Shown one piece after another: positions 28,812 through 62,228 of a stretch of DNA of 64,000 bases. The DNA lies in contig CAVUWD010000015.1 in the NCBI GenBank assembly GCA_963745025.1, positions 36,441-100,440 of the forward strand, written 5' to 3'. The stretch comes from an uncultured delta proteobacterium. Its GTDB lineage: Bacteria > Desulfobacterota > Binatia > JACPRU01. The notes under the pieces are model-generated. The model worked only from the letters and a program-made list of their open reading frames with translations. It was not told the DNA's origin and made no database searches. Each line of letters starts with the position of its first letter. Positions within the stretch are counted from its first letter, which is position 1. The position numbers and the translations under genes are program-made.

Positions 28812-28906
28812 GGAGATGGAAGAGGCCCGGCGGCCTCAGCGGTCTTCAAAACCGCATCAGGGCCGATAAGGTCCTGGGTGGGTTCGACTCCCATCCATCT
28901 CCGCCA
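28812..28906 (+). tRNA. selC: tRNA-Sec (anticodon UCA)
   Basis: 8-bp acceptor stem GGAGATGG/CCATCTCC plus GCCA; 6-bp D stem GAGGCC/GGCCTC with a 4-nt loop; anticodon loop CTTCAAA; long variable arm; T arm GTGGG-TTCGACT-CCCAT; 95 nt. Confidence 0.95.
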
Positions 28907-41011: not shown

Positions 41012-41057
41012 GCCCGGTCGAGAAGGCTCGTCCATTCATCCCCGTTTACGAGCCGTC

Positions 41058-41354
41058 AAGGACGCCAAGCTCTTTCCCGGCGGAGCGAGAGAGTGGCACT
41101 GGGCTGAGACCGGTACTGCGCACGTGCCCGGAATCCAGCCCTCCGACGTCACCGAGTTGCTGGAGCACGGCGCCACGGTGGTCGTGCTTACCAAGGGTGT
41201 ATACGAGCGGCTTCGGGTCTGCCCCGAGACGCTCAAGCTGCTTAGCGATCGAGGCATAGCCGTTCACGTCCTACAGACCGAGGAAGCCGTCCGAGTCTAC
41301 AATCGGCTGGTCGAGACGGATGGGGTTGGCGGACTCTTTCACTCGACCTGCTGA
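41058..41354 (+). pseudogene. Mth938/AAMDC-like protein, N-terminally truncated
   Basis: KDAKLFPGGAREWHWAETGT.H.PGIQP.DV.ELL...QTEEAV..YN.L...GGLFHSTC. Confidence 0.8.
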
Positions 41355-41522
41355 CCTGAAGAGTAGCCCTCATGCTCGACTCAGTTGTCTACCGGCGATT
41401 GAGGGTTTCACCCTCAACGTCTGTCCGGTAATAAACGGTCGCTCCTCTTTCGCTTCGGTGTCGTTCCAGATTGGAGTGCGCCCCGCGATCACGGCGCCAA
41501 CCTGCGGAAGCAATCGGGAATT

Positions 41523-43088: not shown

Positions 43089-43413
43089 GGAGAGCGCACG
43101 TCACCTCTGCGACACGGTCTCGGATGGATACGAGCGCCCCGCAGGCAAGCGCCGTGCGCTCTTCGGCGCCCTGCTCTCGCTCTGCGGCCTGCTCTTCCCT
43201 GCGCTCGCGGCGGAGGCCGCGACCCACGTGATCGGCTATCACCCGCCGGTCTTGCTCCCGGACTCGGTCCGCGCGCAGTACCAGACCCTGCCCGACGCCC
43301 CCTTCGTCCCAAAGTGGTATCGAGACCTTCGGGTCCATATCTCAAACGCGCCATTCCCAGGGGCTCCGCACCGATACCGATGTAGATGTTACAGGCCACT
43401 AGTCGCTTTCTAA
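43087..43413 (+). pseudogene. N-terminal fragment of a membrane-anchored protein (SGNH-associated-like)
   Basis: KRRALFGALLSLCGLLFPALAAEA anchor followed by early termination. Confidence 0.3.
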
Positions 43414-43457
43414 GGTAGGAGCTCGAGGCCGCCTCCTGTTTCATCCAGCCCGCGGGA

Positions 43458-44429
43458 TCAACCCGCCGGTCGCCGCCCGACCACCTGCGTGCTCGGCTTC
43501 GTCCGCCGCGCGACGACCGTGAACATCGGCATCGGACGACCGCTGTGCTGTTGGCTATGAAGGGCCACGCGACTGTCCTCGAAACCTAGAATGCCGAGAA
43601 GCTCCCGGACGACGTGCGGGCTCAGCTGCCACCAAGCGTCCTTCGGCTCGCGGCGCCGATAGTCGGGCAGAAGCGTCAGGATCGGCAGCGCTGCCATGCG
43701 CTCGCCATACTGCCGCAGGTGCTCCTCAAACTGGCGTAGCCAGACTTCGTTTTTCCAGAGCGGATCGCCGCAGATTCGCTGCGCGAGCCGCAACACGTGC
43801 CTCCGCCAGCCGGCGATGGCGGGCAGCCTTGGCGCCGGCGGGGGCAGCGTCACCGGCGGCATCCAGAAGGGCTCCGTGACGATCACCGTCTCGCGCACCA
43901 TACGGAGCGCACTCGCCAACGCTAGAAACGGATCGCGGAGGTGAAGGAGGATGCAGCCGAACATGGCGACGTCCACCGTACCGATGGCTCCGGGAACGTC
44001 GTAAACGTCGCCGTAGACCACGCGGGCGGACGACTGGAACGCGCGATGGCAGAGCCACCAGCCGTTGTTCACGAGGTGGATAAGCGAGCTGTACTCCGCC
44101 GCCATGCGGCGGAGGTCATCATCGGGAAACACTACGACGTTCTGCAGGTGCGCGTGCTCGGGCGAGAGATCGTAGGCGACAACGTCCGCCCCTTGCCTTT
44201 CCATGTGGAAGCACACGAAGCCGCTCGCCGTACCGAGCTCGAGTACTCGCTTGCCGCCGAGGGGCACGTGGCCAAGATAGTCTCCGATCGCCGCGCGGAG
44301 GTCCCACGGACCTTCGACGAGCCCGTACCCCGGAACCTCGATCGTGTGGTAGAAGAAGCAGTCCTCCAGCCGCGTCACGACGCGCGGGGCTGCGTATGGC
44401 GCTTGGCCGGCTAAGAGGCTTTCGCTCAT
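43458..44429 (-). CDS. Class I SAM-dependent methyltransferase
   Basis: CFFYHTIEVPG, GKRVLELGTASGF, ILLHLRDPF.AL. Confidence 0.85.
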   Translation of the reverse strand: MSESLLAGQAPYAAPRVVTRLEDCFFYHTIEVPGYGLVEGPWDLRAAIGDYLGHVPLGGKRVLELGTASGFVCFHMERQGADVVAYDLSPEHAHLQNVVVFPDDDLRRMAAEYSSLIHLVNNGWWLCHRAFQSSARVVYGDVYDVPGAIGTVDVAMFGCILLHLRDPFLALASALRMVRETVIVTEPFWMPPVTLPPPAPRLPAIAGWRRHVLRLAQRICGDPLWKNEVWLRQFEEHLRQYGERMAALPILTLLPDYRRREPKDAWWQLSPHVVRELLGILGFEDSRVALHSQQHSGRPMPMFTVVARRTKPSTQVVGRRPAG

Positions 44430-44804
44430 CGCGTATTTGCGCGGCCGTCAAAGCGCACCGGTCGCTCGAGGTCAAGTTGACCTCGGGACTCATTTCCGTC
44501 TTCTTCTCGGCGAACGACTTTGTCGGGCGTTGGTCGCTCTGCTCGATGCGCATCGGCTTCGACCTCACCCTGCTCGCCGGCGCCTCCGTTCATCTGATTT
44601 CGATGCTCGCCTGGCCGTACTTGCAATCGTCAGCCTGGCCGATTGCCTCTGGCAGTCCAAAGCCCTTTGGGTTGAGCGATGCGTTCACCCTCCAGAGCGT
44701 GCGGCGACCGCTACCGAGTTTGAACCACGTGGTTCAAACTCGGGCTCTACGTAGGCCGAAGTGGGACGATCCGAGCAAGAAAACCCTTAGAAATTCGCAC
44801 CTAC

Positions 44805-44833
44805 TCGAGGGTTCGAATCCCTTCTGCTCCAAC
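44805..44833 (+). other. tRNA-Ala-like 3' fragment (att-core-like) within the island 1 right arm
   Basis: TCGAGGGTTCGAATCCCTTCTGCTCCA is a T arm plus acceptor 3' strand with U70 (G3:U70 Ala identity). Confidence 0.6.
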
Positions 44834-45017
44834 CTCGCCGATGCCTTAGAGCTTTGGAGTGCCCTCAGGCGAGAAAGGGTTCGGTTTTTTCGCTGCGTCG
44901 GCAGACGATGGATCCGGTGCTTGATCTGTAGTTTGGCCCTCGAGGGCTAAGCTACCCCTGAACAGCCACATCCAGCATCATCGGCGGCGAAATTCTCTTG
45001 ATTTTCCGCGGTCGGCT

Positions 45018-45046
45018 GTGGGTTCGACTCCCATCCATCTCCGCCA
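45018..45046 (+). repeat. tRNA-Sec 3' duplication (junction of island 1 and island 2, attP-like)
   Basis: GTGGGTTCGACTCCCATCCATCTCCGCCA, identical to 28878-28906. Confidence 0.95.
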
Positions 45047-45149
45047 TTTTCCGTCGGGGTTACGTGGCGTTTGGCCCTCGCGAGGGCCAAACGAGGGCCC
45101 AAGGTTCCCTTTTTTGCCTGAAGAGCGGTGCACCGAGCCCTCTCGAACC

Positions 45150-45290
45150 ACGCTCCGGATCGCCGAGCCGCTCGGCCTCCTCGAAGCTCTTGAGCCGGGC
45201 GAGCTTCGCCCGGCTCATTACGGTGGCTACCGCCCCGAAGCTCACCCCGAGGCTGCGCCATGTGAGTTCGCTCGGCGGGCAAGTCGCAAC
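45150..45290 (-). pseudogene. IS21 IstA N-terminal HTH fragment
   Basis: RSLGVSFGAVATVMSRAKLARLKSFEEAERLGD resembles IstA N-termini. Confidence 0.5.
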
Positions 45291-45496
45291 GCCGCATGTG
45301 GCCAAGCGGGCTCCCACCTCGATGCGCCGCGACGACGATCGCCTCGGGAGGGCTCGTAGGCAAAATGCGGCCGCACAATGGCTAGGCGACTTCTGGGACT
45401 TTGTTCCGGCTCAGAAACTGAGCCAAGGCTAGAGAAAATGTCTGGAGTTTGGGAGGTTGGGAGGACGTCGCACCTGAGGGTGAGTGCTCAGGGCGG

Positions 45497-45545
45497 ATCA
45501 CCTATGTTCCCGGTTCAATGTGTTACCCATGTTCCCGGTCGCAAC
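45497..45545 (+). mobile_element. IS481-like terminal repeat remnant
   Basis: Tandem (T)CACCTATGTTCCCGGT ... TGTTACCCATGTTCCCGGT, as seen at IS481-family ends. Confidence 0.55.
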
Positions 45546-45687
45546 CGCCCCGTTCCACGCGATGCCTCACCCATTGCTCGGCGCCGGGCCGTGACGCTCC
45601 CGGAACGAGCGGTGCTCTGCGTCTGGCCCGTCTCGTTCAGCCGCTACGCCGAGGTCGACTGGGTCGAGATCTCGCACTCGCTCGTCG

Positions 45688-47793
45688 GTGATTGACGCCG
45701 CGATGCTCGCAAAAGACGATCTCGCCGGTCTGCCGGGTCCCGCGCTGCTCCTCGCCGGAGGCGTCGCGGTGCTCATAGGAGGCTTCGGCGCGACCGCGTC
45801 GATCACCGGGATCGCCTGGGGCGCCCTTGCCGCGGCCGCGGGCGCCGCGCTCGTTGCCGCTAGCGTCCGGCGCGGGCGCGCGCCCTCGGATGCCGTCTGG
45901 ATCGCCGCGGGAGCGATTGCGCTCGCGTTCGTCGCGTTCTCGGAATCGAGCGCGCGGACGTTCGCGCACCTGAACGCGCGCTCGGTGCGCGGGGCCTGGC
46001 CCTACCTCGCGGGAGGCGGCCTTCTCGTGGCGCACTGGTTCGGGCGCGATCCCGATCGGCGTGGCTGGGTCCTGTTCGCCGCCGTTCAACTCTGGCTCGT
46101 GCTCACCTTCCACGACGCCACCGGCGGCGCGCTCGTCACCTCCGACGACCTGCCGTCGTTCCTCTACCGCCTGCATCTCGAGCGCGACGCGTTCCCGCAC
46201 CTCGTCTTCTGGAACCCGGAGTGGAACGGCGGCTACGCCAGCTACGAGCTCGTCGCGACCGGCGCGATCAGCTTCTTCCTGCTTGCATCGCCGTTCCTCG
46301 CGCTCGGTGAACTCGTCGATACGTTCTCGGTCGCGCTCCCGCACGTGTACTTCGTCGTGCTCCCGTGGAGCTACTACCTTGGGCTTCGAGCGTTCGGTGT
46401 CGCCGCCGGGGCGGCCGCTCTTGGCGGCATCGCATCGCTCGCGCCGACCACGCTGCTATTCCTCTACGCGCTCCACTTCGGCCTGCCGCCGTTCGTGATC
46501 TCCTGCTACTTCGCGGTCGTTGCGACCGGCCTCTTCGCGCACGCGTTTCTCGTCGGCCGGACCGATCTCGCTGGTCTCGTCGCGCTCGTCGCCGCAACGA
46601 GCTTCGTGCTCCTCTGGCCGCTCGGCGCGCTGATCCTGCTGCCGGTGATCGGCAGCGCGGCGCTCGCCGCGCGGCGGTTCAAGTCGGCAGACTGGAGGCG
46701 CGCAAGCGCGGTCGTGGCCGCCCTTCTCGCGCTCCACCTGCCCTGGGTCTACTGGCTCGCGATCTACGGCGACTCGCGGCAGCATCTGGCGCGCCAGGCG
46801 AGCCCGATTCTCGGCGGCGTAGATTGGCCGGGGACCACGCTCGCGATCGGCCGGACGCTCGAGCAGTTGAACCCGGTCGTCGCCGCGTTCGCCCCGGTAG
46901 GCGCCGTCCTAATGCTCCGCTGGCCGCCGGGACCGAAGCGAGCCGCCGGGGCCCTCCTCGTGGCACTTGCGGCCTGGAATTTCGTGATCGGCATCTTCGC
47001 GAACCAGATCCGTACGGACGTCGGCCTGGAGCGCTTCGCGATTCCGGCGAGCCTATTTCTCGCCGCGCTCGCGACGGTCGCGTTCGACCGCCTCCTCGAG
47101 TACGGCGCATCCTGGATCCGGACGGCGATTCTCGGCACTGTCGTCGCCGTGCTCGGGGCGAGCGTCGCCGGCGCCGCCTCCTTCTACCGGAACGAGGGTA
47201 TCTATGGGTACGAAACCTCGTCGCCGGCGCTCGAGCGCATGGTCGACGCGATCCGTACGCATTGCGACCCCGAGCGCCGGGTGCTCGTTCCCGGCATCTC
47301 GGTGCACTGGTTCGGCGGCGGCCACATGGCGCCCCTGCCGCTGCTCACCGGCCGAAGCTTCGTCGGCAACGACTTCTACCACCGCCGCGACTTTCGCGAC
47401 GCCGTGCCGAGGAAGTTCCAGAGCGGCGAAGCCTTCCGCCACTTCCTCGACCTCTGGAACGTCGGCTGCGTCCTGAACCACCTGCCGACCTGGGCCGAGA
47501 CGCTCGCGGCGAGGCCCGATCTCGCTGCGGTCGCGGACGAGGGCGGTATCACGCTCTACGCCGTACCCGGGGCGTCGAACCGGTTCCTGCGGGGCTCGGG
47601 CCGCGTCGAGGAACGGCCCGGAGCGCTCGTCGTCGAGACCGGGGACTCGGAGGTCGTGATCAAATATCGCTGGTCGCCGGCACTGCGCACCGATCCGCCA
47701 GTGCCGATCGCAGGGGAGCGGATCTACGGCGACGTTTCGTTCATCCGACTTCGCCCCGGCGGGCACCAGCGCGTGGAGATCACACTCCGATGA
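45688..47793 (+). CDS. Polytopic membrane protein, GT-C/YfhO-like
   Basis: SDDLPSF...WNPEWNGGY loop, many transmembrane segments, periplasmic C-terminal domain (ERRVLVPG, FLDLWNVG.V). Confidence 0.7.
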   Translation: MIDAAMLAKDDLAGLPGPALLLAGGVAVLIGGFGATASITGIAWGALAAAAGAALVAASVRRGRAPSDAVWIAAGAIALAFVAFSESSARTFAHLNARSVRGAWPYLAGGGLLVAHWFGRDPDRRGWVLFAAVQLWLVLTFHDATGGALVTSDDLPSFLYRLHLERDAFPHLVFWNPEWNGGYASYELVATGAISFFLLASPFLALGELVDTFSVALPHVYFVVLPWSYYLGLRAFGVAAGAAALGGIASLAPTTLLFLYALHFGLPPFVISCYFAVVATGLFAHAFLVGRTDLAGLVALVAATSFVLLWPLGALILLPVIGSAALAARRFKSADWRRASAVVAALLALHLPWVYWLAIYGDSRQHLARQASPILGGVDWPGTTLAIGRTLEQLNPVVAAFAPVGAVLMLRWPPGPKRAAGALLVALAAWNFVIGIFANQIRTDVGLERFAIPASLFLAALATVAFDRLLEYGASWIRTAILGTVVAVLGASVAGAASFYRNEGIYGYETSSPALERMVDAIRTHCDPERRVLVPGISVHWFGGGHMAPLPLLTGRSFVGNDFYHRRDFRDAVPRKFQSGEAFRHFLDLWNVGCVLNHLPTWAETLAARPDLAAVADEGGITLYAVPGASNRFLRGSGRVEERPGALVVETGDSEVVIKYRWSPALRTDPPVPIAGERIYGDVSFIRLRPGGHQRVEITLR

Positions 47794-49724
47794 GCGCGCG
47801 ATGGCTGACCGGGGAGTCTGCGAGAGCTCCTTGGCTCGCCCTAGCCGCGGTGGTCGTGGTGTTCGCCGCGGCGCACCTCGACCTCGGCGCGATGGACAGC
47901 TTTCGAACGACCTGGGAGGCGGTCGCCTCCGGCGCCGAGCGCATCCCCGCAAGCGGCCAGGTGGCGATCTGGGAGGTGCCCCGCGACGTCGTGGTCGCCG
48001 AGCCGGCCACGGTTCTCCACCTCGCGGAGCGCGTGGGCTTCGCCGGGTCGGCGTCCTTCTGGCTGCTCGCCGCCGCGCTCGGGGTCGTCGGGGCCGCCGG
48101 CGCGTTCGCCATCGGGCTCGACCTCGGGCTGGCGCCGCCCACCGCCGGTCTCGCGGCCGCCGCCGCGGGATCGCTCTTCCTCGCTTCCGGACAGGGCCTC
48201 TGGGGAACGCTCGCCGCGGCGCCGCTCATCTGGGTCGTGCGTGGCGCCGTCGGCGGCCGCGGTCTCGCCCTCCCGATCGCGGTCGTGGCGCTCGGCGTGC
48301 TCTCGCGCCCGGGAACGCTCCTCGCCGTGCCGGTGCTCGTCGCCGGGATCCTCGCACGCGGTACGACGTCGACGGTGGCGCTCTCGCTCGCGCTCACGCT
48401 CGGTTTTGCGATTCCGCCCAACGAAGTCGACTGGGCGCGCTTCCTCCGCCTCGACGCCGGTCACTACTTCGCCTACGGCGCGCCGTACGGGCTTCCGGAC
48501 CGCGGCTACCGCGCGACGCTCGCCGCCTCGATTGGGGCCGTGCGGGGCGACGGGATCGCGCTCGCCGCCAGCGTCGCTGCGTGGGGCGCGGCTGCGGTCG
48601 GAGCCGTGCGCACCGGGCGACGCGGATGCGCGTTCTTCGTCGCGGCTGCCGCCTTCGCCGCACTCGTGACCCATCCGCCGGGTCGCCTCCACGAGTCGGC
48701 GTCGTCGCCCGCCGCGTTCCTCGCAACGATCGCTCCGTCGCTCCAGGTCTACGACCTCGCGCGGATCGGCGGCTCGATCGCCGCGCTGCTCCTGCCGCCG
48801 CTCGCGGCGCGCGGGATCCGGAGGACGCTCGCCGCCGCCCTCGCGATGCTCGCGCTCGTCGCCCTCGGCTGGCGCGGTGGGAACGAGGCGGGAACCGGCG
48901 TCGAGCCGATCGACCGGCAGCTCGCCGAGATGATCGCGGCGAACCCGGGCCGCGTGCTCGTGCTGCCGCTCGGGGTCGCGTCGGACGGCGCGTGGCAGAG
49001 GGCAATCCCCCCCGGGACCGGGCTCGCGAACGGATCGCAGGAGCTGCTCGCACGGAACGCGCCGATCCTAGCGCGCGAGTTCGCGCTCGCCGATGTCGCG
49101 AGCCTGAAGGAACTCGCCGGCAGGCTCCACGTCGACCGCGTGCTCTTGCCGCGCGGCTGGACGTGGGAGCGGGGGCAGGTGGTCGGCGCGGGCGGGGGAC
49201 GGCTGCTCGTTGGGCTGCCGCAGCGCCAGCCTGCGAAGGCTCCGAAGCCGCTCGAGTGCCTCCCGACCACTGGTTGGAAGGCGACCTCGAGCGTCGGCAA
49301 TCCGAGCGTGTCGATCCCGGAGCGCGCGATCGACCGCGACGTCGACACCCGCTGGGGAACCGGAGCCCCGCAAGAGCCCGGCTTCTTCTACGAGATCGAC
49401 CTCGGCGGCGAATACCGGCTCGACCGCCTGCGCATCGACTTCACAGGCTGGCGGCGCGACTTCCCGCGCGGCTTCCGCGTGCTCGTCAGCCAGGACGACG
49501 GCTCGGTCGCCGTCGTCGCCGAGCGCGATCCTTACTTGGGCGAGCTCGCCTGGGGGCTCGACGGCTCGTTCCCATACGACGACGGCGCTCAGGGCGGCCG
49601 GATCGAGATGGGTCTCGGGCGCACCCGGGGGCACCGCCTCAGGATCGAGCTCACGCGCGGCGCGCGCTTTTACGACTGGTCGATCGGCGAGCTCTGCCTC
49701 GCCGGCGAACGGATCGAGCCGTGA
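47790..49724 (+). CDS. Polytopic membrane protein (GT-C-like) with a C-terminal discoidin domain
   Basis: ATGA overlap, many transmembrane segments, GRVLVLP, WKATSS...AIDRDVDTRWGTG.PQ.PG..EIDLG...DFPRG...DWSIGEL. Confidence 0.75.
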   Translation: MSARWLTGESARAPWLALAAVVVVFAAAHLDLGAMDSFRTTWEAVASGAERIPASGQVAIWEVPRDVVVAEPATVLHLAERVGFAGSASFWLLAAALGVVGAAGAFAIGLDLGLAPPTAGLAAAAAGSLFLASGQGLWGTLAAAPLIWVVRGAVGGRGLALPIAVVALGVLSRPGTLLAVPVLVAGILARGTTSTVALSLALTLGFAIPPNEVDWARFLRLDAGHYFAYGAPYGLPDRGYRATLAASIGAVRGDGIALAASVAAWGAAAVGAVRTGRRGCAFFVAAAAFAALVTHPPGRLHESASSPAAFLATIAPSLQVYDLARIGGSIAALLLPPLAARGIRRTLAAALAMLALVALGWRGGNEAGTGVEPIDRQLAEMIAANPGRVLVLPLGVASDGAWQRAIPPGTGLANGSQELLARNAPILAREFALADVASLKELAGRLHVDRVLLPRGWTWERGQVVGAGGGRLLVGLPQRQPAKAPKPLECLPTTGWKATSSVGNPSVSIPERAIDRDVDTRWGTGAPQEPGFFYEIDLGGEYRLDRLRIDFTGWRRDFPRGFRVLVSQDDGSVAVVAERDPYLGELAWGLDGSFPYDDGAQGGRIEMGLGRTRGHRLRIELTRGARFYDWSIGELCLAGERIEP

Positions 49725-51670
49725 GCGCGCGCGCCCGCACGCTCGCCGTCGTCGCGGCGGCTGTCGCGGTCGGCCTCGCATACCGGCTACTCGTGCTCCG
49801 TGGCCTGTTGGGCAGGCTCCGCGGCGACCACGCGGTGGTCGCGCTCATGGCGAAGCACATCACCGAGGGCCATCACTACATCTTCTACTGGGGCCAAAAC
49901 TACATGGGCTCGCTCGAGCCCTACACCATCGCGGCGCTCGTGCGGCTCTTCGGGCTTTCGGACGCGGTTGTGATGACCGGCCCGCTCCTCTGGGGCCTCG
50001 TCCACCTGCTCACGTTCTATCCCCTCGGCCGCCTACTCTATGACAGGGCGGTCGGCGCGGTGACCCTGGTTGCAGCCGCACTCGCACCGCCGCTACTAGC
50101 GCTGTGGCACGTGGAGCCGCGGGGCGGCTACGCGGAAGGTCTCGCCCTCGGGCAGCTCGCGCTCGTGATCGGGATCTGGCTCGCGCGCGACCGCCCGCGC
50201 GACTGGGGCACCGGGGCGGCGCTCGCGCTCGGCGTCGTGGCTGGTCTTGGTTTCTGGACGAACCTCCTGGTCGTCGACTATCTGGTCCCGGCGTGCGTTT
50301 TGCTCTTGTCGCGCGATCCGAGCGCGCCGCTCCGGCGCCACACCTGGGTAGCGCTCGCCGGCTTCGGCCTGGGCAGCCTGCCGCTCTGGGTGCACACCGT
50401 CGCACAGGGCTTCTCGGCGTTTGCGATCATCGGCGGTCGGGACGGCCATGTGTCGGTCGCGAGGAATGCGCTTCACCTCTGCTCGCAAGAGGGGCCGGTT
50501 GTGCTCGGCGTCGCGCGGCTCGACGGCTTCGGGGGTCTCGTCGGCGGATCTGCAGGAATCGCCGCCGCTGCAATCATGGTCGCGGGGATCGGCTGGAGCA
50601 CATGGCGAGCGCGCCACGGCCTCCTCGACCTCGTCCGCCTGAGCCCCACGGCGCCGGGCGGGGAAATCTGCGTCCTATTGCTAGCGACCGTCCTCTGCCT
50701 CTACCTGCCGACGCACTTCGCGACGTGGAACGCCCCCCGTTATCTCCTGCCGGCGTACGCGGGCATTCTGCCGCTCCTCGCCGCGGCCGGCGTCGACCTG
50801 TGGCGCCGCTCGCGGCTCGCGGCGACGCTCGCAACGCTGTTCGTCGCGGGCGTGGTCAGCGCGGGCGCTCGGGCATATCTCGTAGCTCTCGCGGCACCGG
50901 ATGTCTATGCAGACCGTCTCGGCCGGGTTCTGCAGCTCCTCGCTACCGAGCGAGTGCACCAGGGCTTCGCCGACTACGACGAGGCGTTCCTCCTTACCTA
51001 CCGGTCGAACGAGCGCTCGTTGATGCTCGAACGAGAGATGCACCGCTACCCCCACGAGGAGATCGCCGACTGGAGGCCCGACGCGGTGCTCGCCCGACGC
51101 GAGTTCGCGGGGGCCCTGCAGGACGCGTTCACAGCGCTCGATTGCGCGTTCGAGCACCGCGACGTCGGCACCTACACGCTCTTCTACCGGATCCACCCGA
51201 GGCACCAGACCGCGCCGATCGCCGACCGATCGGCGTGGACCGCGACTGCGAGTGATGCGCCGGAGAACGCGCACTTCGCGATCGACGGCGACCTCCAAAC
51301 CCGCTGGGGTTCGGCTCGGCCTCAATCGCCCGGCATCTGGTTCGAAGTCGACCTCGCCGGCGAGACCGAGGTCGGCGGCGTCGTGCTCCGCTCGGGACGC
51401 TTCGGTCACGATACGCCGCGTGCGATCCGGGTCGAGACCCGCGCCGAGGATGGCGTCTGGAGCCCAGCGGTCGCCCTCGACACGCCCGCTGTCGGCCTCG
51501 TGCTCTCGAACGGAGCGATCGATCTCCGGAGCGAGGCGACGATCGAGATCGGGTTCTCGCCCCGTGCGGCGCGCGCGATCCGGATCTCGCTCGCGGCCGC
51601 CGACCGAAAGTGGGACTGGTCGATCGCCGAGCTCGCGGTGAAGGAAGCGCAGCCGGCAGCGGCACGATGA
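49721..51670 (+). CDS. GT-C (ArnT/PMT-like) glycosyltransferase with a C-terminal discoidin domain
   Basis: GDHAVVALMA, YWGQNYMGSLE, GFWTN, PRYLLP, AIDGDLQTRWGS..PQ.PG.WFEVDL...DWSIAEL. Paralog of 38432-41011. Confidence 0.8.
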   Translation: MSARARTLAVVAAAVAVGLAYRLLVLRGLLGRLRGDHAVVALMAKHITEGHHYIFYWGQNYMGSLEPYTIAALVRLFGLSDAVVMTGPLLWGLVHLLTFYPLGRLLYDRAVGAVTLVAAALAPPLLALWHVEPRGGYAEGLALGQLALVIGIWLARDRPRDWGTGAALALGVVAGLGFWTNLLVVDYLVPACVLLLSRDPSAPLRRHTWVALAGFGLGSLPLWVHTVAQGFSAFAIIGGRDGHVSVARNALHLCSQEGPVVLGVARLDGFGGLVGGSAGIAAAAIMVAGIGWSTWRARHGLLDLVRLSPTAPGGEICVLLLATVLCLYLPTHFATWNAPRYLLPAYAGILPLLAAAGVDLWRRSRLAATLATLFVAGVVSAGARAYLVALAAPDVYADRLGRVLQLLATERVHQGFADYDEAFLLTYRSNERSLMLEREMHRYPHEEIADWRPDAVLARREFAGALQDAFTALDCAFEHRDVGTYTLFYRIHPRHQTAPIADRSAWTATASDAPENAHFAIDGDLQTRWGSARPQSPGIWFEVDLAGETEVGGVVLRSGRFGHDTPRAIRVETRAEDGVWSPAVALDTPAVGLVLSNGAIDLRSEATIEIGFSPRAARAIRISLAAADRKWDWSIAELAVKEAQPAAAR

Positions 51671-54812: not shown

Positions 54813-57176
54813 ATGAAGTATGCGGCCGCGCTGTTCGTGACGTCGATCGCGAGTCTTCAGTCTCTTGGAGTCGGTTTTGCCCAGACCGCGTGTAACGCGC
54901 CGGCGCTACCTCTAGCAGGCACTCGTGTCGTCAACGTCGCGACTGAGCCGGCTCTGCAAGCCGCGATGAACAATCTTCAACCCGGAGATACGGTCCTGAT
55001 CGCCGACGGCACGTACAACCTCACGAGCTCGCTCTACATCAACGGGAAGGACAACGTCACGATCCGCGGCACCTCGGGATGCACCGGCGTCGTTCTGGCG
55101 GGAAAGGGAATGGATACGTCCAGTGCGAGCGTGCCGTTCGGCATCTGGTCGAACTCGCGAAACACCACGATCGCCCATCTGACAATCCGGGATACGTGGG
55201 ACAACGAGATCATGTTCAATTCCGGGGCGCAGGCGCCGCACGTCTACAGCGTGAAGCTGTTGAACGCCGGATCGCAATTCATCAAATCCAACCCGACCGA
55301 TGCCACGATGGGAATCGGAGTCAACAATGGGCTCGTAGAATACTCCTGGCTGGAATACACAAACGGTCCTCCCGGTGATCATGGCGGAGGAGCCGGATAC
55401 ACGAACGGCATCAGCGCACACGCTGCCGATGATTGGATCATTCGCGGGAACGTGTTCAAGAATTTTCATACGCCGGATTCCGCAACGTATCTCTGGAACC
55501 CGGCGGTGCTCATGTGGAATCACTCCGCCAACACCCTTACGGAGCGCAATACGTTCATCAACGTGGACCGATCGATCGCATACGGTCTGCAGCTGAATCC
55601 ACCCGGGAACGACCACTCGGGCGGCACGATCCGAAACAACTTCGTGTATCTCCAACCCGGCTTGATGAGCGCGGCACGCAAAGCAAGCTCGGACGGCACC
55701 ATGATCGTTTGGGATTCACCCAACACGAAGGTGTACCACAATACGGTCCTGGCGAATGCGAACATCTTCTACTCCATCGAATTCCGCTTCAGCACGACAA
55801 CGAACGGTGAAGCGCGCAACAATCTCGCGGACCTGCCGATTCACGTTCGGGACGGAGCCGGGGTTACCCAGTCCGGAAATCTCGGGACTGCGACGTCTGG
55901 AATGTTCGTGGATCCTGCATCGGCGAATCTCCATCTACAAGGAACGGCCACGGCGGCGATCGATCAGGCGCCGTTTCTTGCTGCGGTGAGGGATGACTTT
56001 GATGGAGAATCCCGACCGCAAGCACCCGCCTACGATATCGGAGCGGACGAATTCCTTGGGCCAGCCAACACACCGACCCCGGGCAGTACGCCGACGAACA
56101 CTCCGACCCGGACCCCGACGAACAACCCGACTCATACGCCGACGAGCATCCCGACGAAGACGCCGACCAACACATCCACGGCCACCCGCACGCCGACCTC
56201 CACCCCTGCGGCACCGCCGACGCACACCCCGACACCGACCAGCACCCCGGTGCCGACCGCGACGCCGGGCAAAGAGGTCTGCCGCGGGCCGAGCTTCTGG
56301 GCTGCGCACGCACGGTTCGATCCCACGCAGCCGCGCAGCCGCAACATCGCCTCGGCGGCAATCCTCGCCGGGGGCGGCTGCCTGAACATCTGCGGCGAAG
56401 TCATCGTGCCGACCGGCAGCCACTCGAGCTCGACGGATTGCTCGAGCACGGGCAACAACTTCAACTGCCCGAGGATCGTCAACGACGCCGACTCGGCCGA
56501 GGAGGCGCTGTGCGCGGCGCCGACCGGCGACAAGAGGCTGCAGCTCGTGCGGCACCTGACGGCCGCGGCCCTGAACTGCAGCGTCACGACCGGCTCGAGG
56601 GACTGCACCGGAACGAGCGGGGAAGACGCCTTCAAGTCGTGCAACGCGGCATGCGCAAACGGACTGACCAGCGCCTCGATCGACGGCCACCCGCCGGTGG
56701 ATTGCGTCCGGGCACTGAATTGCTTCAACAAGGGAGGCCAGTTCGACTCGGTGACGGGAAAGAAGTGTCGGCTCGGGACGTGCTCGACCAACGATGCGCA
56801 GGCGTGCGGCCCGGGGTTCCCTGCCTGCCCGGGCGGCGGGGGCTGCGTCCCGGCCGTTGGAAACTGTAGCCAGGCCGTATTCGGAGCCTGCTCCGACGCG
56901 CCGGCCGATGGCAATCCCGCGGTGCTGTGCAGCTCGCTGATCGATCCCGGCACGGGGCTCGGAACGTGTAAGAACGGGTCCACGTGCGTCCCGGGGCCTT
57001 CGGGAAGCTCTAGTCAGTGCAACAGCGCCATCGCCAACAGCTGCACCGTGGTCCCGCCGGGCGAGACGAGCTGCGCGGCGGGGAACACATGCCCCGACTC
57101 GGAGGACTGCTGTGATCCGGCCGGCCCGTGCCCGATGTGTCTCAACGGCGACACCTGCACGAGCACCTGCCTGTGA
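54813..57176 (+). CDS. Secreted right-handed parallel beta-helix protein with a PT linker and a Cys-rich C-terminal domain
   Basis: Signal peptide, LQPGDTVLIADGTY, IRGNVF/IRNNF/VYHNTV repeats, YDIGADE, a (PT)n linker, and 32 Cys in the C-terminal ~300 aa. Confidence 0.8.
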   Translation: MKYAAALFVTSIASLQSLGVGFAQTACNAPALPLAGTRVVNVATEPALQAAMNNLQPGDTVLIADGTYNLTSSLYINGKDNVTIRGTSGCTGVVLAGKGMDTSSASVPFGIWSNSRNTTIAHLTIRDTWDNEIMFNSGAQAPHVYSVKLLNAGSQFIKSNPTDATMGIGVNNGLVEYSWLEYTNGPPGDHGGGAGYTNGISAHAADDWIIRGNVFKNFHTPDSATYLWNPAVLMWNHSANTLTERNTFINVDRSIAYGLQLNPPGNDHSGGTIRNNFVYLQPGLMSAARKASSDGTMIVWDSPNTKVYHNTVLANANIFYSIEFRFSTTTNGEARNNLADLPIHVRDGAGVTQSGNLGTATSGMFVDPASANLHLQGTATAAIDQAPFLAAVRDDFDGESRPQAPAYDIGADEFLGPANTPTPGSTPTNTPTRTPTNNPTHTPTSIPTKTPTNTSTATRTPTSTPAAPPTHTPTPTSTPVPTATPGKEVCRGPSFWAAHARFDPTQPRSRNIASAAILAGGGCLNICGEVIVPTGSHSSSTDCSSTGNNFNCPRIVNDADSAEEALCAAPTGDKRLQLVRHLTAAALNCSVTTGSRDCTGTSGEDAFKSCNAACANGLTSASIDGHPPVDCVRALNCFNKGGQFDSVTGKKCRLGTCSTNDAQACGPGFPACPGGGGCVPAVGNCSQAVFGACSDAPADGNPAVLCSSLIDPGTGLGTCKNGSTCVPGPSGSSSQCNSAIANSCTVVPPGETSCAAGNTCPDSEDCCDPAGPCPMCLNGDTCTSTCL

Positions 57177-57294: not shown

Positions 57295-58476
57295 ATGCTA
57301 AGACTCGCTAAGATTCGACGGTTTACGATGATTTGTGTGTTGATCGGCTTTGGGTCCGTCGCCGGTTTCTGCGTTTTAGAGGGCATGAGCAGCTTGGCTC
57401 TTTTTTCCGCTGACCTTCTCTCGAAGACAGGCGTCGCTGATTGGCCAAGCATGCGCTACGATTCCGAGCTCGGCTGGGTGAACCGGCCGAACGTCTTCAT
57501 GTCTGATCTCTATGGGCCTGGAATTTTTCTTCGAACCAACGCACGGGGCTTTCGAGGTGACCAAGAGGTGACGCGCGAGGCTCCGCGCGATCGCCTCCGA
57601 GTCATCTGTTCGGGAGACTCGTTCACGCTCGGTTATGGCGTTGATGACTACCACGCGTGGTGCCACCTGCTGGGATCGATGGACCACCGATTCGATACAG
57701 TCAACTTGGGGGTGGCGGGCTACGGTATCGACCAAGCCTACCTGAGGTACGTTCGGGTGGGGCATTCGCTAGAGCACACCGTCCACGTGTTCGCGCTCAT
57801 CACGCTAGACTTTTACAGGATGAGGTGTGCGACGTTCTCCGGCTACGGCAAACCGATGCTTGCGGTCAAGGACGGCTTGCTGGTGACCAGGAACGTTCCG
57901 GTGCCGCAATCTCGATTCGCAGTCTTGTTCTCCACTTTCCTGTACCGCCTGAAGAAGGCCGCTCACGCGCTCCGCAGTATCGAATTGGTGAATCGGGCTC
58001 GCAAGCGATTGAGCTACGGCGCCGCTGCTCGAGGCGGCGTAGCTCGCGATGAGAGCATGCACTTCGACGAGGAGACCTGGCAAGTCACCGCGAAGATCTT
58101 CGAAACCTTGCAGCGGATGGATCGCGCCGTGGGTAGCACGCTCTTGATCGTCTACCTTCCCATGGAGTACGACCCCGAGGCTGACGCGTGGCGCGAACGG
58201 CTGCGCGCGGAATCCGAGAAGAGCGGCTTCTCTTATCTCGACCTAGTGCCGGCGCTACGGCAGCTACCGGCGCAGCAAAGGGCCGCCATGTTCCTGTCGG
58301 AAACCACTCCCGCAGCCGGGCATTACACGGACGCGGGCAACGACTGGGTGGCGGAACGAATCCACGACGAGCTACTGCGCTTGGCGCCCGTCGCTGCTCG
58401 TCTCGCCGGGACTCCGGATGTTGGCGGCCAGGAAAGCGACCTCTCAGGTAATCAAGTACTTATGGCGCCTCGGTAG
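57295..58476 (+). CDS. SGNH/GDSL hydrolase-family protein, membrane-anchored
   Basis: YDSELGW, TNARGFRG, GDSFTLGYGV, NLGVAGYGIDQ, GHYT.AGN. Confidence 0.85.
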   Translation: MLRLAKIRRFTMICVLIGFGSVAGFCVLEGMSSLALFSADLLSKTGVADWPSMRYDSELGWVNRPNVFMSDLYGPGIFLRTNARGFRGDQEVTREAPRDRLRVICSGDSFTLGYGVDDYHAWCHLLGSMDHRFDTVNLGVAGYGIDQAYLRYVRVGHSLEHTVHVFALITLDFYRMRCATFSGYGKPMLAVKDGLLVTRNVPVPQSRFAVLFSTFLYRLKKAAHALRSIELVNRARKRLSYGAAARGGVARDESMHFDEETWQVTAKIFETLQRMDRAVGSTLLIVYLPMEYDPEADAWRERLRAESEKSGFSYLDLVPALRQLPAQQRAAMFLSETTPAAGHYTDAGNDWVAERIHDELLRLAPVAARLAGTPDVGGQESDLSGNQVLMAPR

Positions 58477-58504
58477 AAAGCTCCGTCATTGGCGTAGAAG
58501 TTGC
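58450..58504 (+). promoter_or_regulatory. IHF site plus sigma54 (-24/-12) promoter
   Basis: AATCAAGTACTTA (58450-58462) matches WATCAANNNNTTR. TGGC-GTAGAAG-TTGC (58490-58504) has the sigma54 spacing. Confidence 0.6.
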
Positions 58505-58664
58505 CCTTAGCCTAGTTCCGCGTCGAGCAATAGCGGATTGAACGAATTGTTCACTCCGACTGAACGCCTATGCTGTCGGAGCATTCCTGCTGGGGAGGGT
58601 CCCGGTCGGAAAGCAAATCAACCAGCTGCCGGACAGGGTATTCGGTAGATTGCGAGGGCAAGTC

Positions 58665-58859
58665 ATGCGGCGATATTTGACGTGGAAAGGGCTGGGTCTC
58701 GCAGTTCTCACGATGGGGCTAATGTTACCGCCGTTTGCGAGTGCAGGTTTTTGTCCGATCCCCGCCGTGCCGGAAATTGACCCGAGCGTTGCGCAAAGTG
58801 CGCTGACGGTGCTCGTCGGCGGAGTGCTCGTTCTGCTGGGACGTCGCCAGCGCGTTTGA
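58665..58859 (+). CDS. VPEID-CTERM sorting-domain micro-protein 1
   Basis: Signal peptide ending FASA, then GFCPIPA-VPEID, a transmembrane helix and an RRQR tail. Confidence 0.85.
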   Translation: MRRYLTWKGLGLAVLTMGLMLPPFASAGFCPIPAVPEIDPSVAQSALTVLVGGVLVLLGRRQRV

Positions 58860-58903
58860 TCTTGCCGGGTCATCCGGTCGATTTCGCCCGCAGGGGGATA
58901 CCT

Positions 58904-59074
58904 ATGCAACGATTACTCACAGGGCTTGGCATCGCTGTGCTCACCATCGGCGTAGCCTCACCGGCGTTTGCGGATGTTCCTGTACCGGAGATCGACCCGA
59001 GCGTTGCCCAGAGCGCGCTCACGCTTCTCGTCGGCGGCGTCCTCGTTCTGCTGGGACGTCGCCGGGGCGATTGA
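58904..59074 (+). CDS. VPEID-CTERM sorting-domain micro-protein 2
   Basis: Signal peptide ending PAFA, then DVP-VPEID, a transmembrane helix and an RRR tail. Confidence 0.85.
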   Translation: MQRLLTGLGIAVLTIGVASPAFADVPVPEIDPSVAQSALTLLVGGVLVLLGRRRGD

Positions 59075-59127
59075 TTCGCCGCTATTCCCAGCGAGAGCGA
59101 TGGGGCGCGGGGCCCCGATGAGAGTTC

Positions 59128-60795
59128 GTGCTCCGAAACCCTACCTGGTCAGAGATCCCGAGCGTTGAGTCAGGGCGGCCGAGACCGGTCGTAGTGTTGA
59201 GTGCCCTCGGCGCGTTGTTAGTCGCCGAAGGGATTTTTCTGAGCGGCCGCTTCGAGGCCCCCGACGCCCCAATCCTCGGCTCCGCCTTGTGGGCGGTTGT
59301 GCTGTCTCAGGCGCACGTCGCGCTGCGTTTCGCGATTGCGCTCGCAGCGGCCGCGCTGCTGCTCGGCGGCGAAGATCTGCGCACGTGGGTGAAGCAGGCG
59401 TTACCCGCAACGTCCGAGCCCCGTTCGGCCTGGCCGTGGCTGCTGGCTCACCTGCTGGCGTTCTTAGCGTTCTATCAGCTGACCGCGGTAGTTGTGGAAG
59501 GCGATCTGCGTGCATCTCCAACCCCGGGGTGGTGGGTCGGAATCTGGCTGTTGACCGGCATCGTCGCCGTGATCTGCTGCGCGGCGGTCGTTCTGTCGGG
59601 CCGTGCCGTGCTGACCTTCGTTCGCCGGGCTTCGAGAATCCTGCTGATCAGCGCCGCCGTCGGCGCCGTGGCTCTGCTGGCCGGCAGCTTCACGGACTCC
59701 GCTTGGCGTCCGCTCGGCGGTCTGACGCTGCGCATGGTCGCCGCCCTCATCTCGTGCGTGGCGACGGACGGGGTCATGGACCCGGCGCACATGGTCGTGG
59801 GTACGCGACGGTTCTCGATCAAGATCTCACCGGGGTGTTCGGGATACGAAAGCATCGGACTGATCTGGGTGTTTCTCGGCGTGTACCTGTGGGCCTTCCG
59901 CAGATCGTTGCGTCTGCCGCGCGCGTTGCTGCTCCTGCCGCTCGGAGCGGTCCTGATGGGTCTCCTCAACGTGTTTCGTATTGCCTCCCTCATCGCCGTC
60001 GGGACCTGGGTATCGCCCGACATCGCGATCGGGGGGTTCCACTCCTACGCCGGCTGGCTGCTCTTCTGCGGCGTGGCGTTGGGAATGGTGGCGACGACAC
60101 GTCGCTCGTCGTTCTTCACGGCCGTGCCGCTCGTTAGTAGCGAGGGCATCGGTCCAAATCCCACGGCAGCGTACTTAGGGCCGCTGTTGGCGCTGCTTAC
60201 GGTGTCGATGCTCGGCAGTGCGTTTTCAAGAGGGAGCGGGGGCTTCGAGATTCTATACCCGCTGCGCGTGTTGGCTGTGGCCGCAACGCTCTGGATCTTC
60301 CGGCGGCAATACCAGGGGCTGGGATGGACCTGGTCCTGGGCGGCGGTGGGCGCGGGTGTGGCGGTTTTCATTCTGTGGATGGGACTGGAGGGCACGCCAG
60401 CCGCCGCCGGCGACCACGCACTCCAGGAGGGAGTGGGGCAGCTACCTTCCAGCTGGCTGGCTGTCTGGCTGGCGTTTCGCGTTCTGGGAACCGTGGTCAC
60501 CGTGCCGCTTGCCGAGGAGCTGGCGTTTCGAGGATATGCCCTGCGCCGGCTGATCGCTGCGGATTTCGAGAGCGTGAGCTTTCAGCGATTCACCGCGTTG
60601 TCGTTCTTTGGATCGTCGCTGTTGTTCGGCGCCTTGCACAGCCGTCTACTCGCGGGCTCCCTCGCCGGCGCTGCTTACGCCCTCGTGCTCTACCGGCGCG
60701 GCGAAATGAGTGACGCGGTCGTTGCACATGCGACGACCAACGCTCTGCTGGCCGCGTGGGTACTCCGTACGGGAGCATGGTCATTATGGATTTAA
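59128..60795 (+). CDS. xrtE: Exosortase E / CPBP (Abi, CAAX-like) protease fusion, VPEID-CTERM system
   Basis: Exosortase triad C (PGCSG), R (LNVFRI), H (GGFHS). CPBP motifs EELAFRG, FGALH, HATTN. Adjacent to the VPEID substrates. Confidence 0.88.
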   Translation: MLRNPTWSEIPSVESGRPRPVVVLSALGALLVAEGIFLSGRFEAPDAPILGSALWAVVLSQAHVALRFAIALAAAALLLGGEDLRTWVKQALPATSEPRSAWPWLLAHLLAFLAFYQLTAVVVEGDLRASPTPGWWVGIWLLTGIVAVICCAAVVLSGRAVLTFVRRASRILLISAAVGAVALLAGSFTDSAWRPLGGLTLRMVAALISCVATDGVMDPAHMVVGTRRFSIKISPGCSGYESIGLIWVFLGVYLWAFRRSLRLPRALLLLPLGAVLMGLLNVFRIASLIAVGTWVSPDIAIGGFHSYAGWLLFCGVALGMVATTRRSSFFTAVPLVSSEGIGPNPTAAYLGPLLALLTVSMLGSAFSRGSGGFEILYPLRVLAVAATLWIFRRQYQGLGWTWSWAAVGAGVAVFILWMGLEGTPAAAGDHALQEGVGQLPSSWLAVWLAFRVLGTVVTVPLAEELAFRGYALRRLIAADFESVSFQRFTALSFFGSSLLFGALHSRLLAGSLAGAAYALVLYRRGEMSDAVVAHATTNALLAAWVLRTGAWSLWI

Positions 60796-60929: not shown

Positions 60930-61205
60930 GTGATCGGTGGCTTCCGGCATCGCGGCCTTGAGGAGCTGTTCAAAACCGGAAAATCGCGACGGGTAAGCGC
61001 GGATCTACGAAAACGAATCCAGGTGCGCCTCGACGCCATCGCGAACGCCACGAACTTCAAAGACTTGGCGCTTCCTGGCTTTAACTTTCATCCGCTCGTC
61101 GGAAAGCCAAAGAGATATTCGATTCATGTGAACGGCCCGTGGACGATCACGTTCGGTTGGGAGGCCGGTGAGGCCGTTGACGTGGACCTGGAGCAGTATC
61201 ATTAG
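60930..61205 (+). CDS. higB: HigB-family (RelE/ParE) toxin
   Basis: MI.GFRHRGLEELF.TG, LPGFNFHPL.G, YSIHVNGPW.ITF, VDLEQYH. Confidence 0.9.
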   Translation: MIGGFRHRGLEELFKTGKSRRVSADLRKRIQVRLDAIANATNFKDLALPGFNFHPLVGKPKRYSIHVNGPWTITFGWEAGEAVDVDLEQYH

Positions 61206-61221
61206 ACGGGAGGCAACGAAC

Positions 61222-61530
61222 ATGGTGATCCGACGTAATCCCGAACGCCGACCGACCCATCCCGGGGAGTTGTTGCGCGAGACCGTGCTTCCCGCGCTTC
61301 GCGTTTCCGTGAGCAAGGCCGCGCGCGAGCTCGGCGTCACGCGCCAGACGCTTCACCGCATTCTTGCAGAGACTCAGCCGGTCACCCCAGACATGGCGGT
61401 TAGGCTCGGCAAGTTTTGCGGGAATGGCCCGCAGCTGTGGCTCACCATGCAGGTCGACTTCGATCTCTGGGAAGCCACGAACCGGTTGAAAGGCGAGATC
61501 AAGAAGATTCCGACGCGGCAGGCAGCATAA
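61222..61530 (+). CDS. higA: HigA-family antitoxin
   Basis: PTHPGELLRE.VLPAL..SVS.AA..LGVTRQTL..IL, VTPDMAVRLGK, WL.MQ..FDLW. Confidence 0.9.
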   Translation: MVIRRNPERRPTHPGELLRETVLPALRVSVSKAARELGVTRQTLHRILAETQPVTPDMAVRLGKFCGNGPQLWLTMQVDFDLWEATNRLKGEIKKIPTRQAA

Positions 61531-61619
61531 GGATGACAAAGCCTCAAGGAAGAAGAGCAGCAAGCTCGCGCCGGTTCATCCGCGAGAGATCCTACACTGG
61601 CACCAAGCCACTTGCGAAT

Positions 61620-61641
61620 TGGTATAACCATAATTATACCA
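61620..61641. promoter_or_regulatory. Toxin-antitoxin operator palindrome
   Basis: TGGTATAA-CCATAA-TTATACCA just upstream of the antitoxin ATG. Confidence 0.6.
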
Positions 61642-61647
61642 CAAATC

Positions 61648-61890
61648 ATGAAAACTGCGGTGTCTCTTCCCGACCCTGTCTTTCACGAGGCCGAGCAGCT
61701 GGCTAGGCGACTCCGAGTGCCGCGTAGTCGGCTCTACGCTACGGCTATCGCGTCCTACGTCAAGCAGCATCGCCGGAAGAGCATTACTGCAGCACTGAAC
61801 GAAGTGTACGGAGACAAAAAAGAGAACTCCGAGGTCGATCCCGTTCTTCAGAAGTTGCAAGAGCGCTCTCTTCACCGTGAGAAGTGGTGA
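61648..61890 (+). CDS. RHH antitoxin (ChpI/MazE-like)
   Basis: MKTAVSLPDPVF.EAE.LA.RL...RSRLY..AI...IT..LNEVY. Confidence 0.85.
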   Translation: MKTAVSLPDPVFHEAEQLARRLRVPRSRLYATAIASYVKQHRRKSITAALNEVYGDKKENSEVDPVLQKLQERSLHREKW

Positions 61891-62228
61891 TGCGTCGCGG
61901 AGAAATTTGGTGGGCATCTCTTCGCGAGCCCCGAGGATCCGAACCTGGTTACCGCCGTCCGTTGGTAGTCGTTCAATCCGATGACTTTACTGAGAGTCGA
62001 ATCCAAACCGTTATCGGTGCCGTCGTGACGTCCAATACCCGACTTGCCCTTGCGCCCGGTAATCTCCTTCTGCGAAAAAAAGGTAGCGGTCTTTCGCGCG
62101 ATTCGGTGGTCAACGTTTCGCAGCTCATCACGGTCAATAAATCGTCCCTTACCGAACGCGTCGGGCGCCTCTCTTCGGCGCAGCTTCAGCAGCTTAGCGA
62201 GGGTCTGCGCCTTGTTCTTGAGCTGTAG
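61890..62228 (+). CDS. mazF: PemK/MazF-family toxin
   Basis: MRRGEIWWA.L.EPRGSEPGYRRP.VVVQSD.F, GL.RDSVVNVSQL.TV.K. Confidence 0.9.
   Translation: MRRGEIWWASLREPRGSEPGYRRPLVVVQSDDFTESRIQTVIGAVVTSNTRLALAPGNLLLRKKGSGLSRDSVVNVSQLITVNKSSLTERVGRLSSAQLQQLSEGLRLVLEL

Follow-up and report, generated by a model that had tools for sequence, protein, structure and literature searches.

An exosortase E/CPBP protease gene with two peptide-sized VPEID-tail precursors in an uncultured Binatia bacterium, and a tentative lipid-anchoring role for the pair

The 64,000-nucleotide stretch of DNA analysed here (the window; contig CAVUWD010000015.1, positions 36,441 to 100,440) comes from an uncultured delta proteobacterium of the Desulfobacterota, Binatia, and carries a compact cassette in which two tandem genes for very small secreted precursors are followed by xrtE, the gene for an exosortase E fused to a CPBP protease. 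The following features, all on the forward strand and numbered from the first letter of the window, make up the locus.

58490-58504, forward strand: candidate sigma54 (-24/-12) promoter, the only TGGC-N7-TTGC match in the window, where 1.42 are expected by chance
58665-58859, forward strand: precursor 1, 64 amino acids (aa), with the predicted signal peptide at 58665-58745, the core GFCPIPA at 58746-58766 and a tail made of VPEID, a transmembrane (TM) helix and a basic end
58904-59074, forward strand: precursor 2, 56 aa, with the predicted signal peptide at 58904-58972, the core DVP at 58973-58981 and the same kind of VPEID-TM-basic tail
59128-60795, forward strand: xrtE, exosortase E/CPBP glutamic protease fusion, 555 aa, about 15 TM helices
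59836-60042, forward strand: exosortase triad of XrtE, Cys237 (59836), Arg284 (59977) and His305 (60040), on the predicted periplasmic face
60514-60741, forward strand: CPBP motifs of XrtE, EExxxR (E463, E464, R468), FxxxH (H504) and HxxxN (H534, N538), with a cavity predicted to be periplasmic

XrtE is an exosortase E by its score on TIGR04162 (215.3 bits against a cutoff of 150), by its catalytic motifs with a fused CPBP domain and by the two VPEID-tail genes directly upstream on the same strand. It also passes PF09721 and PF02517, and its nearest named homologues are from Candidatus Binatia. The original prediction, made from the sequence of the window, had judged the exosortase Cys/Arg/His and CPBP motifs to be intact, and every residue numbered above proved invariant in 47 of 47 aligned XrtE homologues; its label of metalloprotease for the CPBP domain has to be given up, as two sources, in their available parts, now class CPBP enzymes among the glutamic proteases (bioRxiv 2023.06.07.544157; PMC5874806). 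The public gene call of xrtE begins at an alternative start, 59194 (533 aa). We note that the N-terminal extension of xrtE reads SEIPSV at about 59150-59170 and resembles the PEIDPSV of the precursors at the DNA level, less so in a related genome (G536) whose XrtE is 80% identical; this stretch may be a relic of a third precursor copy, or chance.

Both precursors have a Sec-type leader ending in AxA, where cleavage is predicted from motif and hydrophobicity alone, then the core and then a 30-aa VPEID-helix-basic tail, and each gene is preceded by a purine-rich stretch resembling a ribosome-binding site. The two tails are identical at 26 of 30 positions, and with this gene anatomy the earlier picture of tandem precursors with a leader, a tiny core and a near-identical tail stands, as do, given the predicted cleavage, the cores of 7 and 3 aa ahead of VPEID. 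On TIGR04161 (VPEID-CTERM) precursors 1 and 2 score 11.9 and 12.8 bits, below the cutoff of 33; only 3 of 14 other tail proteins scanned pass it and 11 fall short, so this model is narrow. A profile built from 88 xrtE-linked tails, that of precursor 2 included, finds both precursors at E<1e-11, and 28 of 33 candidates are homologues of precursor 2, two of the 28 being the window's own proteins. Both precursors are VPEID-type proteins and not formal TIGR04161 members. The predicted XrtE/VPEID-type pairing is confirmed, with the enzyme over its cutoff and the precursors below theirs.

A survey of core length across xrtE loci, which the original prediction had proposed as a check, covered 160 loci: the 80 best of at least 363 matches in genomes and the 80 best of at least 302 in metagenomes, kin and duplicates included. 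A PEID-tail gene was present in 126 of them (in 81 of the 96 with both flanks of at least 1 kb), and in 98 of these 126 paired loci it lay at most 1 kb upstream on the same strand; the pairing of precursor and xrtE is not chance. Two to five such genes occurred together in 22 of the 126, and one neighbour of xrtE, GenBank QIE43591.1 (57 aa), is already annotated as VPEID-CTERM. The survey gave 152 distinct tails, after removal of a false PEID match (L096) and with three from the window and genome G233. The core was measured for 140 of them by a heuristic with some wrong cuts (L183 and L048, for example) and with three large passengers counted among the cores at lengths of 23-73. Of these 140 cores near xrtE, 71 have 10 aa or fewer; their lengths span about 0 to 90 aa, with 1-3 residues a frequent size, and many cores are of low complexity with repeat expansions, as are most of the longer ones. 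The idea that the natural substrates are essentially peptides is thus borne out and, since peptide-sized cargo is the norm of the family, this locus does not stand out by its short cores. Twelve of the 152 tails, in eight loci, are carried by secreted proteins of 150-360 aa, as judged by eye. Large secreted PEID-tail proteins stand beside xrtE in L057, L083, L033, L079, L126 and L181, and offer natural controls for the anchoring chemistry.

P and E are the sole invariant residues of the tails, with D almost invariant; other recurring features are a run of small residues following PEID and a GG within the helix. One explanation for the data is that this conserved PEID-TM piece is the working part and the core a disposable spacer, the piece serving as a membrane peptide, as a carrier or primer (a polysaccharide anchor, for instance) or as a pheromone-like hydrophobic fragment that the two proteases excise between them. 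It would agree with a mean identity of 0.87-0.88 in the tail, the only conserved part among close relatives, with the 1-3-residue cores, with the recurring small residues and GG, and with the polysaccharide-export genes found as neighbours (see below). However, sorting tails, being the sites that the enzyme recognises, are conserved in any case, the tails vary from one lineage to another (51% mean column identity), the precursors have no cytoplasmic domain and the large passengers are most easily explained by anchoring, so we regard a working tail as unlikely.

Another possibility is that the mini-genes are remnants or decoys and that XrtE serves larger PEP-CTERM proteins elsewhere. The source genome (G000; assembly 92.65% complete, 7.6% contaminated) holds just two PEID-tail genes by six-frame scan and tail profile, precursors 1 and 2, and no large VPEID protein by the same searches, which clears the earlier doubt that such proteins might be the real substrates; no exosortase match other than XrtE turned up in it. 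Of 251 sampled genomes of this class 41 have XrtE, and in a phylum-wide sample 2 of 301 genomes are over the cutoff. Cultured hosts of XrtE include Methylomicrobium and Singulisphaera. Thirty of the 40 related XrtE genomes of the class have a single exosortase match, classical PEP-CTERM genes occur in only three of the 40, and PrsK is over its cutoff in one; with the tail profile, 39 of 41 genomes yield 72 matches, and 67 of these lie in frames no longer than 224 codons. With a single exosortase, few PEP-CTERM genes and tails in short frames, the cassette is self-contained, and the objection that the real substrates lie elsewhere fails.

In favour of remnants, G000 has four classical PEP-CTERM genes alongside its single exosortase match, and precursor 2 is decayed in the closest relative, a genome of the same genus (G311) whose XrtE is 91% identical and whose xrtE locus is L225. 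These four are two distinct genes, each duplicated, in frames of 225-246 codons. One of the two lies in both copies behind a fragment that matches the end of a prsR-like gene of G311:

G000 C20:240505-245000 and C16:323040-325262: duplicated, apparently orphan PEP-CTERM gene behind a prsR-like fragment

The canonical xrtA-like/prsT/prsK/prsR locus is whole in G311 (G311:C27); its xrtA/prsT/prsK part was not found in G000, nor were PrsK and PrsR over their cutoffs in this 92.65% complete assembly. As this PEP-CTERM pair follows a prsR-like fragment, its own exosortase appears to have been lost or left unassembled; on this tracing of one of the two distinct genes, the classical PEP-CTERM genes of G000 look like orphans rather than XrtE cargo, though XrtE might cross-process them. 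With 37 of the 40 XrtE genomes lacking any classical PEP-CTERM gene, and with mini-genes that retain signal and tail across many phyla, it is very improbable that the precursors are remnants, and here the original prediction is upheld. The decay in G311 does indicate that the second copy is dispensable. That genome also carries a second PEID mini-gene (L269, G311:C2 at about 550350-551020), where a 670-nucleotide stretch matches precursor 2 together with no more of xrtE than its 5' part; this is apparently a truncated second cassette.

An AlphaFold model of XrtE (mean pLDDT 86, pTM 0.69) has about 15 helices, and Lys/Arg counts across the 47 homologues alternate as an N-in, C-out arrangement predicts; the two together would place the exosortase triad on the periplasmic side. 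Residues 344-550 give a middling match to MmRce1 (4cad; Z 6.1, rmsd 5.9, 176 aligned residues) and the C-terminal domain aligns modestly with SpdC (Z 7.4), while Foldseek of the model against the PDB returned no match at E<=0.001. According to the available part of the MmRce1 work, the cavity of that enzyme opens away from the Arg of EExxxR (PMC5874806). In the XrtE model this Arg lies on the cytoplasmic side, so that the CPBP cavity would face the periplasm, in an orientation inverted relative to MmRce1. Both catalytic sites could then act on the exposed end of the precursor, and the suggestion that the CPBP domain makes a second cut, for release or clearing, is geometrically plausible in the model. 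Catalytic sites facing opposite ways were considered and dropped on the MmRce1 topology as given in the same part of that source (PMC5874806).

We propose that XrtE applies ordinary exosortase sorting chemistry to a minimal passenger and so makes a small lipid-anchored envelope peptide, a reading that we prefer although we give it a little less than an even chance. After Sec export, signal peptidase I would remove the leader at AxA, leaving a peptide of 33-37 aa held by its C-terminal helix, with the core and VPEID in the periplasm. Cys237 would cut in or just after VPEID and, by analogy, hand the N-terminal part over to an acceptor that is always the same, most probably a membrane lipid. The CPBP domain fused to it, predicted on the same face, could make a second cut, either removing the leftover hydrophobic stub or trimming or freeing the product. 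The core may be tolerated cargo and not a fixed message, perhaps an exposed, strain-variable tip under diversifying pressure, and the product probably has a role in surface or exopolysaccharide (EPS) biology. Substrates of the archaeosortase ArtA are lipid-anchored, as the available part of one source has it (PMC6098224). The occurrence of the tag on proteins of 150-360 aa fits anchoring rather than cyclisation, and sorting chemistry would account both for a tag that serves passengers of 2 and of 300 residues alike and for the envelope-related genes nearby. It is also in keeping with the dedicated pairing of precursor and xrtE and with the wide range of core lengths ahead of a tail in which only P, E and, nearly, D are fixed. 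Of the released, lipid-linked or cyclised products first envisaged, the lipid-linked one is therefore the branch that we tentatively place first, and a thiolactone as the general product is set aside (Cys in 6 of 71 short cores).

Several observations weigh against this proposal. No acceptor of an exosortase is established in the consulted parts of the cited literature, the lipid being an analogy to archaea (PMC6098224), and the same source, in its available part, treats it as unsettled whether ArtA itself lipidates (PMC6098224). A passenger of 2-3 residues leaves a lipopeptide without an obvious job, and the window has no obvious EPS cluster around the cassette. The behaviour of the core is a further difficulty, as its divergence fits selection for distinct peptides as well as it fits drift. 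The core was less conserved than the signal in 43 of 50 locus pairs, which are non-independent, more conserved in five and equal in two. Against G311, core 1 differs at 8 of 18 nucleotides plus a 3-nucleotide indel, compared with 7 of 78 in the signal and 3 of 90 in the tail. This exceeds the local rate at 4-fold degenerate sites (0.137; P=0.0015) and, when 86,611 six-codon windows of 260 orthologues are ranked by divergence (a sample of about 0.78 Mb of G311), stands in the top 1.1%. A Cys is also kept in four of five precursor-1-like proteins of this clade, with cores GFCPIPA, ECIVTA, GCVVP and GDYCPQV and not in NGTVG.

The pace of core change bears on more than one explanation. Among the 28 close homologues 26 cores are distinct, and mean identity is 0.87 in the tail, 0.50 in the signal and 0.26 in the core; some lineages keep their cores well (0.72-1.0 in five pairs, one of which consists of mis-cut empty cores). 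In one low-depth contig from a public run (depth 4.2), the 30 core bases hold 8 of the 23 substitutions and every one of the 6 gap positions; core 2 was represented in the public-run reads by a single contig at depth 2. None of 14 crude signal-peptide candidates used as a control, several of them probably not real signal peptides, reaches 8 of 18. Against the genome-wide 4-fold rate (0.286), however, core 1 is not above neutral (P about 0.06-0.14). On these alignments the core is the fastest-changing part of the precursor and at least unconstrained; diversifying selection on it is possible, and the claim that it is proven was dropped because it is significant against the local rate and not against the genome-wide one. 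We note separately that from 57295 to 60795 the 4-fold divergence from G311 (xrtE 0.137; the upstream SGNH/GDSL esterase gene 0.12; genome-wide median 0.286) is about half that of the genome, which suggests recent exchange of the esterase-xrtE block between the two lineages.

Variable cores could also mean that the product is a diffusible, strain-specific peptide signal, akin to a ribosomally synthesized and post-translationally modified peptide, in which the acyl-enzyme is resolved by the core Cys (a thiolactone) or by the N-terminal amine (a lactam) and the CPBP domain frees the product much as MroQ does. A Cys thiolactone signal has a real precedent, though its support in these data is weak: AgrB and MroQ make the autoinducing peptide in two cuts (10.1101/2021.12.29.473670), and MroQ is a type II CAAX protease (10.1101/516906), as reported in the available portions of both papers. 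The predicted periplasmic position of both XrtE sites, the distinct and fast-changing cores, the clustering of substitutions and gaps in the core of the low-depth contig and the enrichment of sigma54-type motifs upstream of precursors (below) would all suit a signal, as would the kept Cys, which in P0140, P0141, P0144 and P0146 stands 5-6 residues before the Pro. The G311 orthologue of precursor 1 has a different core with this Cys, and two low-depth contigs, read by hand, apparently keep it in otherwise different cores; within this subgroup the Cys is a genuine pattern.

Across the family, however, Cys occurs in only 28 of the 140 measured cores and 6 of the 71 short ones, at scattered offsets, and the single precursor found in G536 has none; a thiolactone therefore cannot be the general product. 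Other points also count against a signal: the same tag on proteins of 150-360 aa, core divergence that does not exceed the genome-wide 4-fold rate, and the lack of any AgrB- or AgrD-family match in Pfam or NCBIfam at E<=0.01. Nor did the suggested dedicated signalling circuit materialize. Histidine kinases lie in 14 of the 160 loci (8.8 per Mb against 6.0 in G000), three of them within 1 kb and with mixed architectures, and no signalling gene is a constant neighbour across the 160 loci, a survey of linked genes to which an unlinked receptor would be invisible; PrsK, over its cutoff in one of 40 genomes and not in G000, was dropped as a receptor for the peptide. Of the hallmarks of an agr-type system we found the CPBP second protease, MroQ-like, and neither a ring nucleophile at fixed distance nor a linked kinase or regulator. 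We thus consider a peptide signal unlikely. Carried furthest, it would make XrtE a one-polypeptide Gram-negative counterpart of AgrB plus MroQ, whose two periplasm-facing proteases excise a hypervariable core from a Sec-exported mini-precursor and cyclise or lipidate it; Binatia, Planctomycetota, methanotrophs and other Proteobacteria would then share a widespread, unrecognised class of ribosomal peptides that differ by strain and serve as signals or kin tags. The chance of this, too, seems to us small. The core Cys might instead take part in a disulfide, an S-acylation or a lineage-specific ring; a lipobox was rejected, as the residues preceding the Cys do not fit the consensus. All remaining readings taken together are improbable.

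Regulation and gene neighbourhood give some context for these alternatives. A site similar to the sigma54-like one lies upstream in G536 and is lost in G311. Motifs of the -24/-12 type occur upstream of precursors in 16 of 131 regions, by a loose pattern of our own making and in a set that includes one duplicate and a number of kin; the opposite strand gives 2 and shuffled sequence 2.6. A search for sigma70 promoters found none, and terminator-like matches are at chance level. Between the sigma54-like site and precursor 1, a palindrome TGAAC-N5-GTTCA (58539-58553), kept in G311, is a possible regulator site.

In the surveyed loci, polysaccharide-export genes occur in 20 of 160 (12.3 per Mb against 0.7 in G000) and genes of the fatty-acid-hydroxylase (lipid-hydroxylase) family in 13 (7.6 against 0.2), densities biased upward by profiles built from the loci themselves and with many matches from Methylobacter kin; Ig/SdrD-type adhesins also recur near xrtE. 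A fatty-acid-hydroxylase-family gene near xrtE was seen in L073, L088, L102, L121, L128, L132, L162, L169, L170, L179, L180 and L190; such loci often have arrays of 2-5 mini-precursors, and the L088 protein resembles, below cutoff, the ornithine lipid hydroxylase OlsE. It is possible that this hydroxylase-family protein is a lipid-modifying partner of the XrtE system. Two locus titles look doubtful: L069 is titled Sphingobacterium, yet its cassette groups with Cellvibrionaceae loci, and L094 is a freshwater-style metagenome-assembled genome titled Klebsiella.

Elsewhere in the window, two toxin-antitoxin-like pairs, HigB/HigA and a small gene with a MazF/PemK-like toxin, follow xrtE directly on its 3' side (60930-62228), a place where G311 has other genes, including a classical PEP-CTERM gene about 4 kb downstream. 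On the other side are a secreted protein of 787 aa without a Pfam match, in which a Pro/Thr linker joins a beta-helix-like N terminus to a long and Cys-rich C terminus (54813-57176), a cluster of genes for PMT-like membrane glycosyltransferase and F5/8-domain proteins, lying upstream of the cassette by 7-20 kb (38360-51670), and a tRNA-Sec gene (28812-28906).

The locus may be useful as a minimal system. Neither the cleavage site nor the acceptor of a bacterial exosortase is established in the cited literature, as far as its consulted parts go, and a 56-aa substrate with a 3-residue passenger is a good minimal test bed; with one dedicated enzyme this is about the simplest system in which both could be read. 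If the product is a lipopeptide, the cassette would offer a way of making small, C-terminally lipidated peptides ribosomally, one found in 41 of the 251 sampled genomes of the class and in many other phyla; a released product would amount to a Gram-negative peptide signal of a new kind.

How the system relates to known ones can be set out briefly. AgrB has a catalytic Cys and AgrD a variable core. In the staphylococcal agr system, as the sources describe it in part, two membrane proteases likewise act on a small precursor, AgrB forming the thiolactone and the CPBP-family MroQ making the second cut; the XrtE system differs in having no AgrB homology, a Sec signal and TM tail, no conserved ring nucleophile and no linked AgrC/AgrA. 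The archaeosortase A/PGF-CTERM system belongs to a homologous catalytic family but, in the available part of its description, is archaeal, has large glycoprotein substrates and lacks a fused CPBP domain (PMC6098224). PEP-CTERM/exosortase A (EpsH) with PrsK-PrsR and sigma54 shares the Cys-Arg-His exosortase, the tripartite tail and, in surveyed loci, EPS-linked neighbours, with the candidate sigma54 site as a possible further likeness, whereas it has many large substrates in place of one or two tiny dedicated ones; XrtE scores 19 on the XrtA model TIGR03109 (cutoff 208), and G000 has no PrsK or PrsR over cutoff. The myxosortases MrtX and MrtJ (MYXO-CTERM/JDVT-CTERM) are likewise CPBP glutamic proteases that process a C-terminal sorting tail, MrtJ in a two-gene neighbourhood with its target as for xrtE, but their tails have an invariant Cys, which is not among the invariant residues of the PEID tails, and they have no exosortase domain; the Mrt models give XrtE 19-22 bits against cutoffs of 75-100.

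The closest system is exosortase E/VPEID-CTERM itself (TIGR04162 and TIGR04161), with the same fusion enzyme over its cutoff and the same adjacent small PEID-tail gene. TIGR04161 is described for proteins of 80-120 aa; the present locus differs in its 56-64-aa precursors, in their two tandem copies and in tails below the TIGR04161 cutoff. Four fusions of EpsH with a CAAX protease were noted as early as 2006, as the available part of that paper records (PMC1569441), and we found no paper on XrtE/VPEID-CTERM function in the literature searched, most subscription papers and supplements lying outside it. Since the system is already catalogued under these two models, the locus is not a discovery in itself; what this analysis adds to the catalogued family is the comparison of core rates, the counts that bear on self-containment, the clade-limited Cys and the predicted same-face topology of the two catalytic sites.

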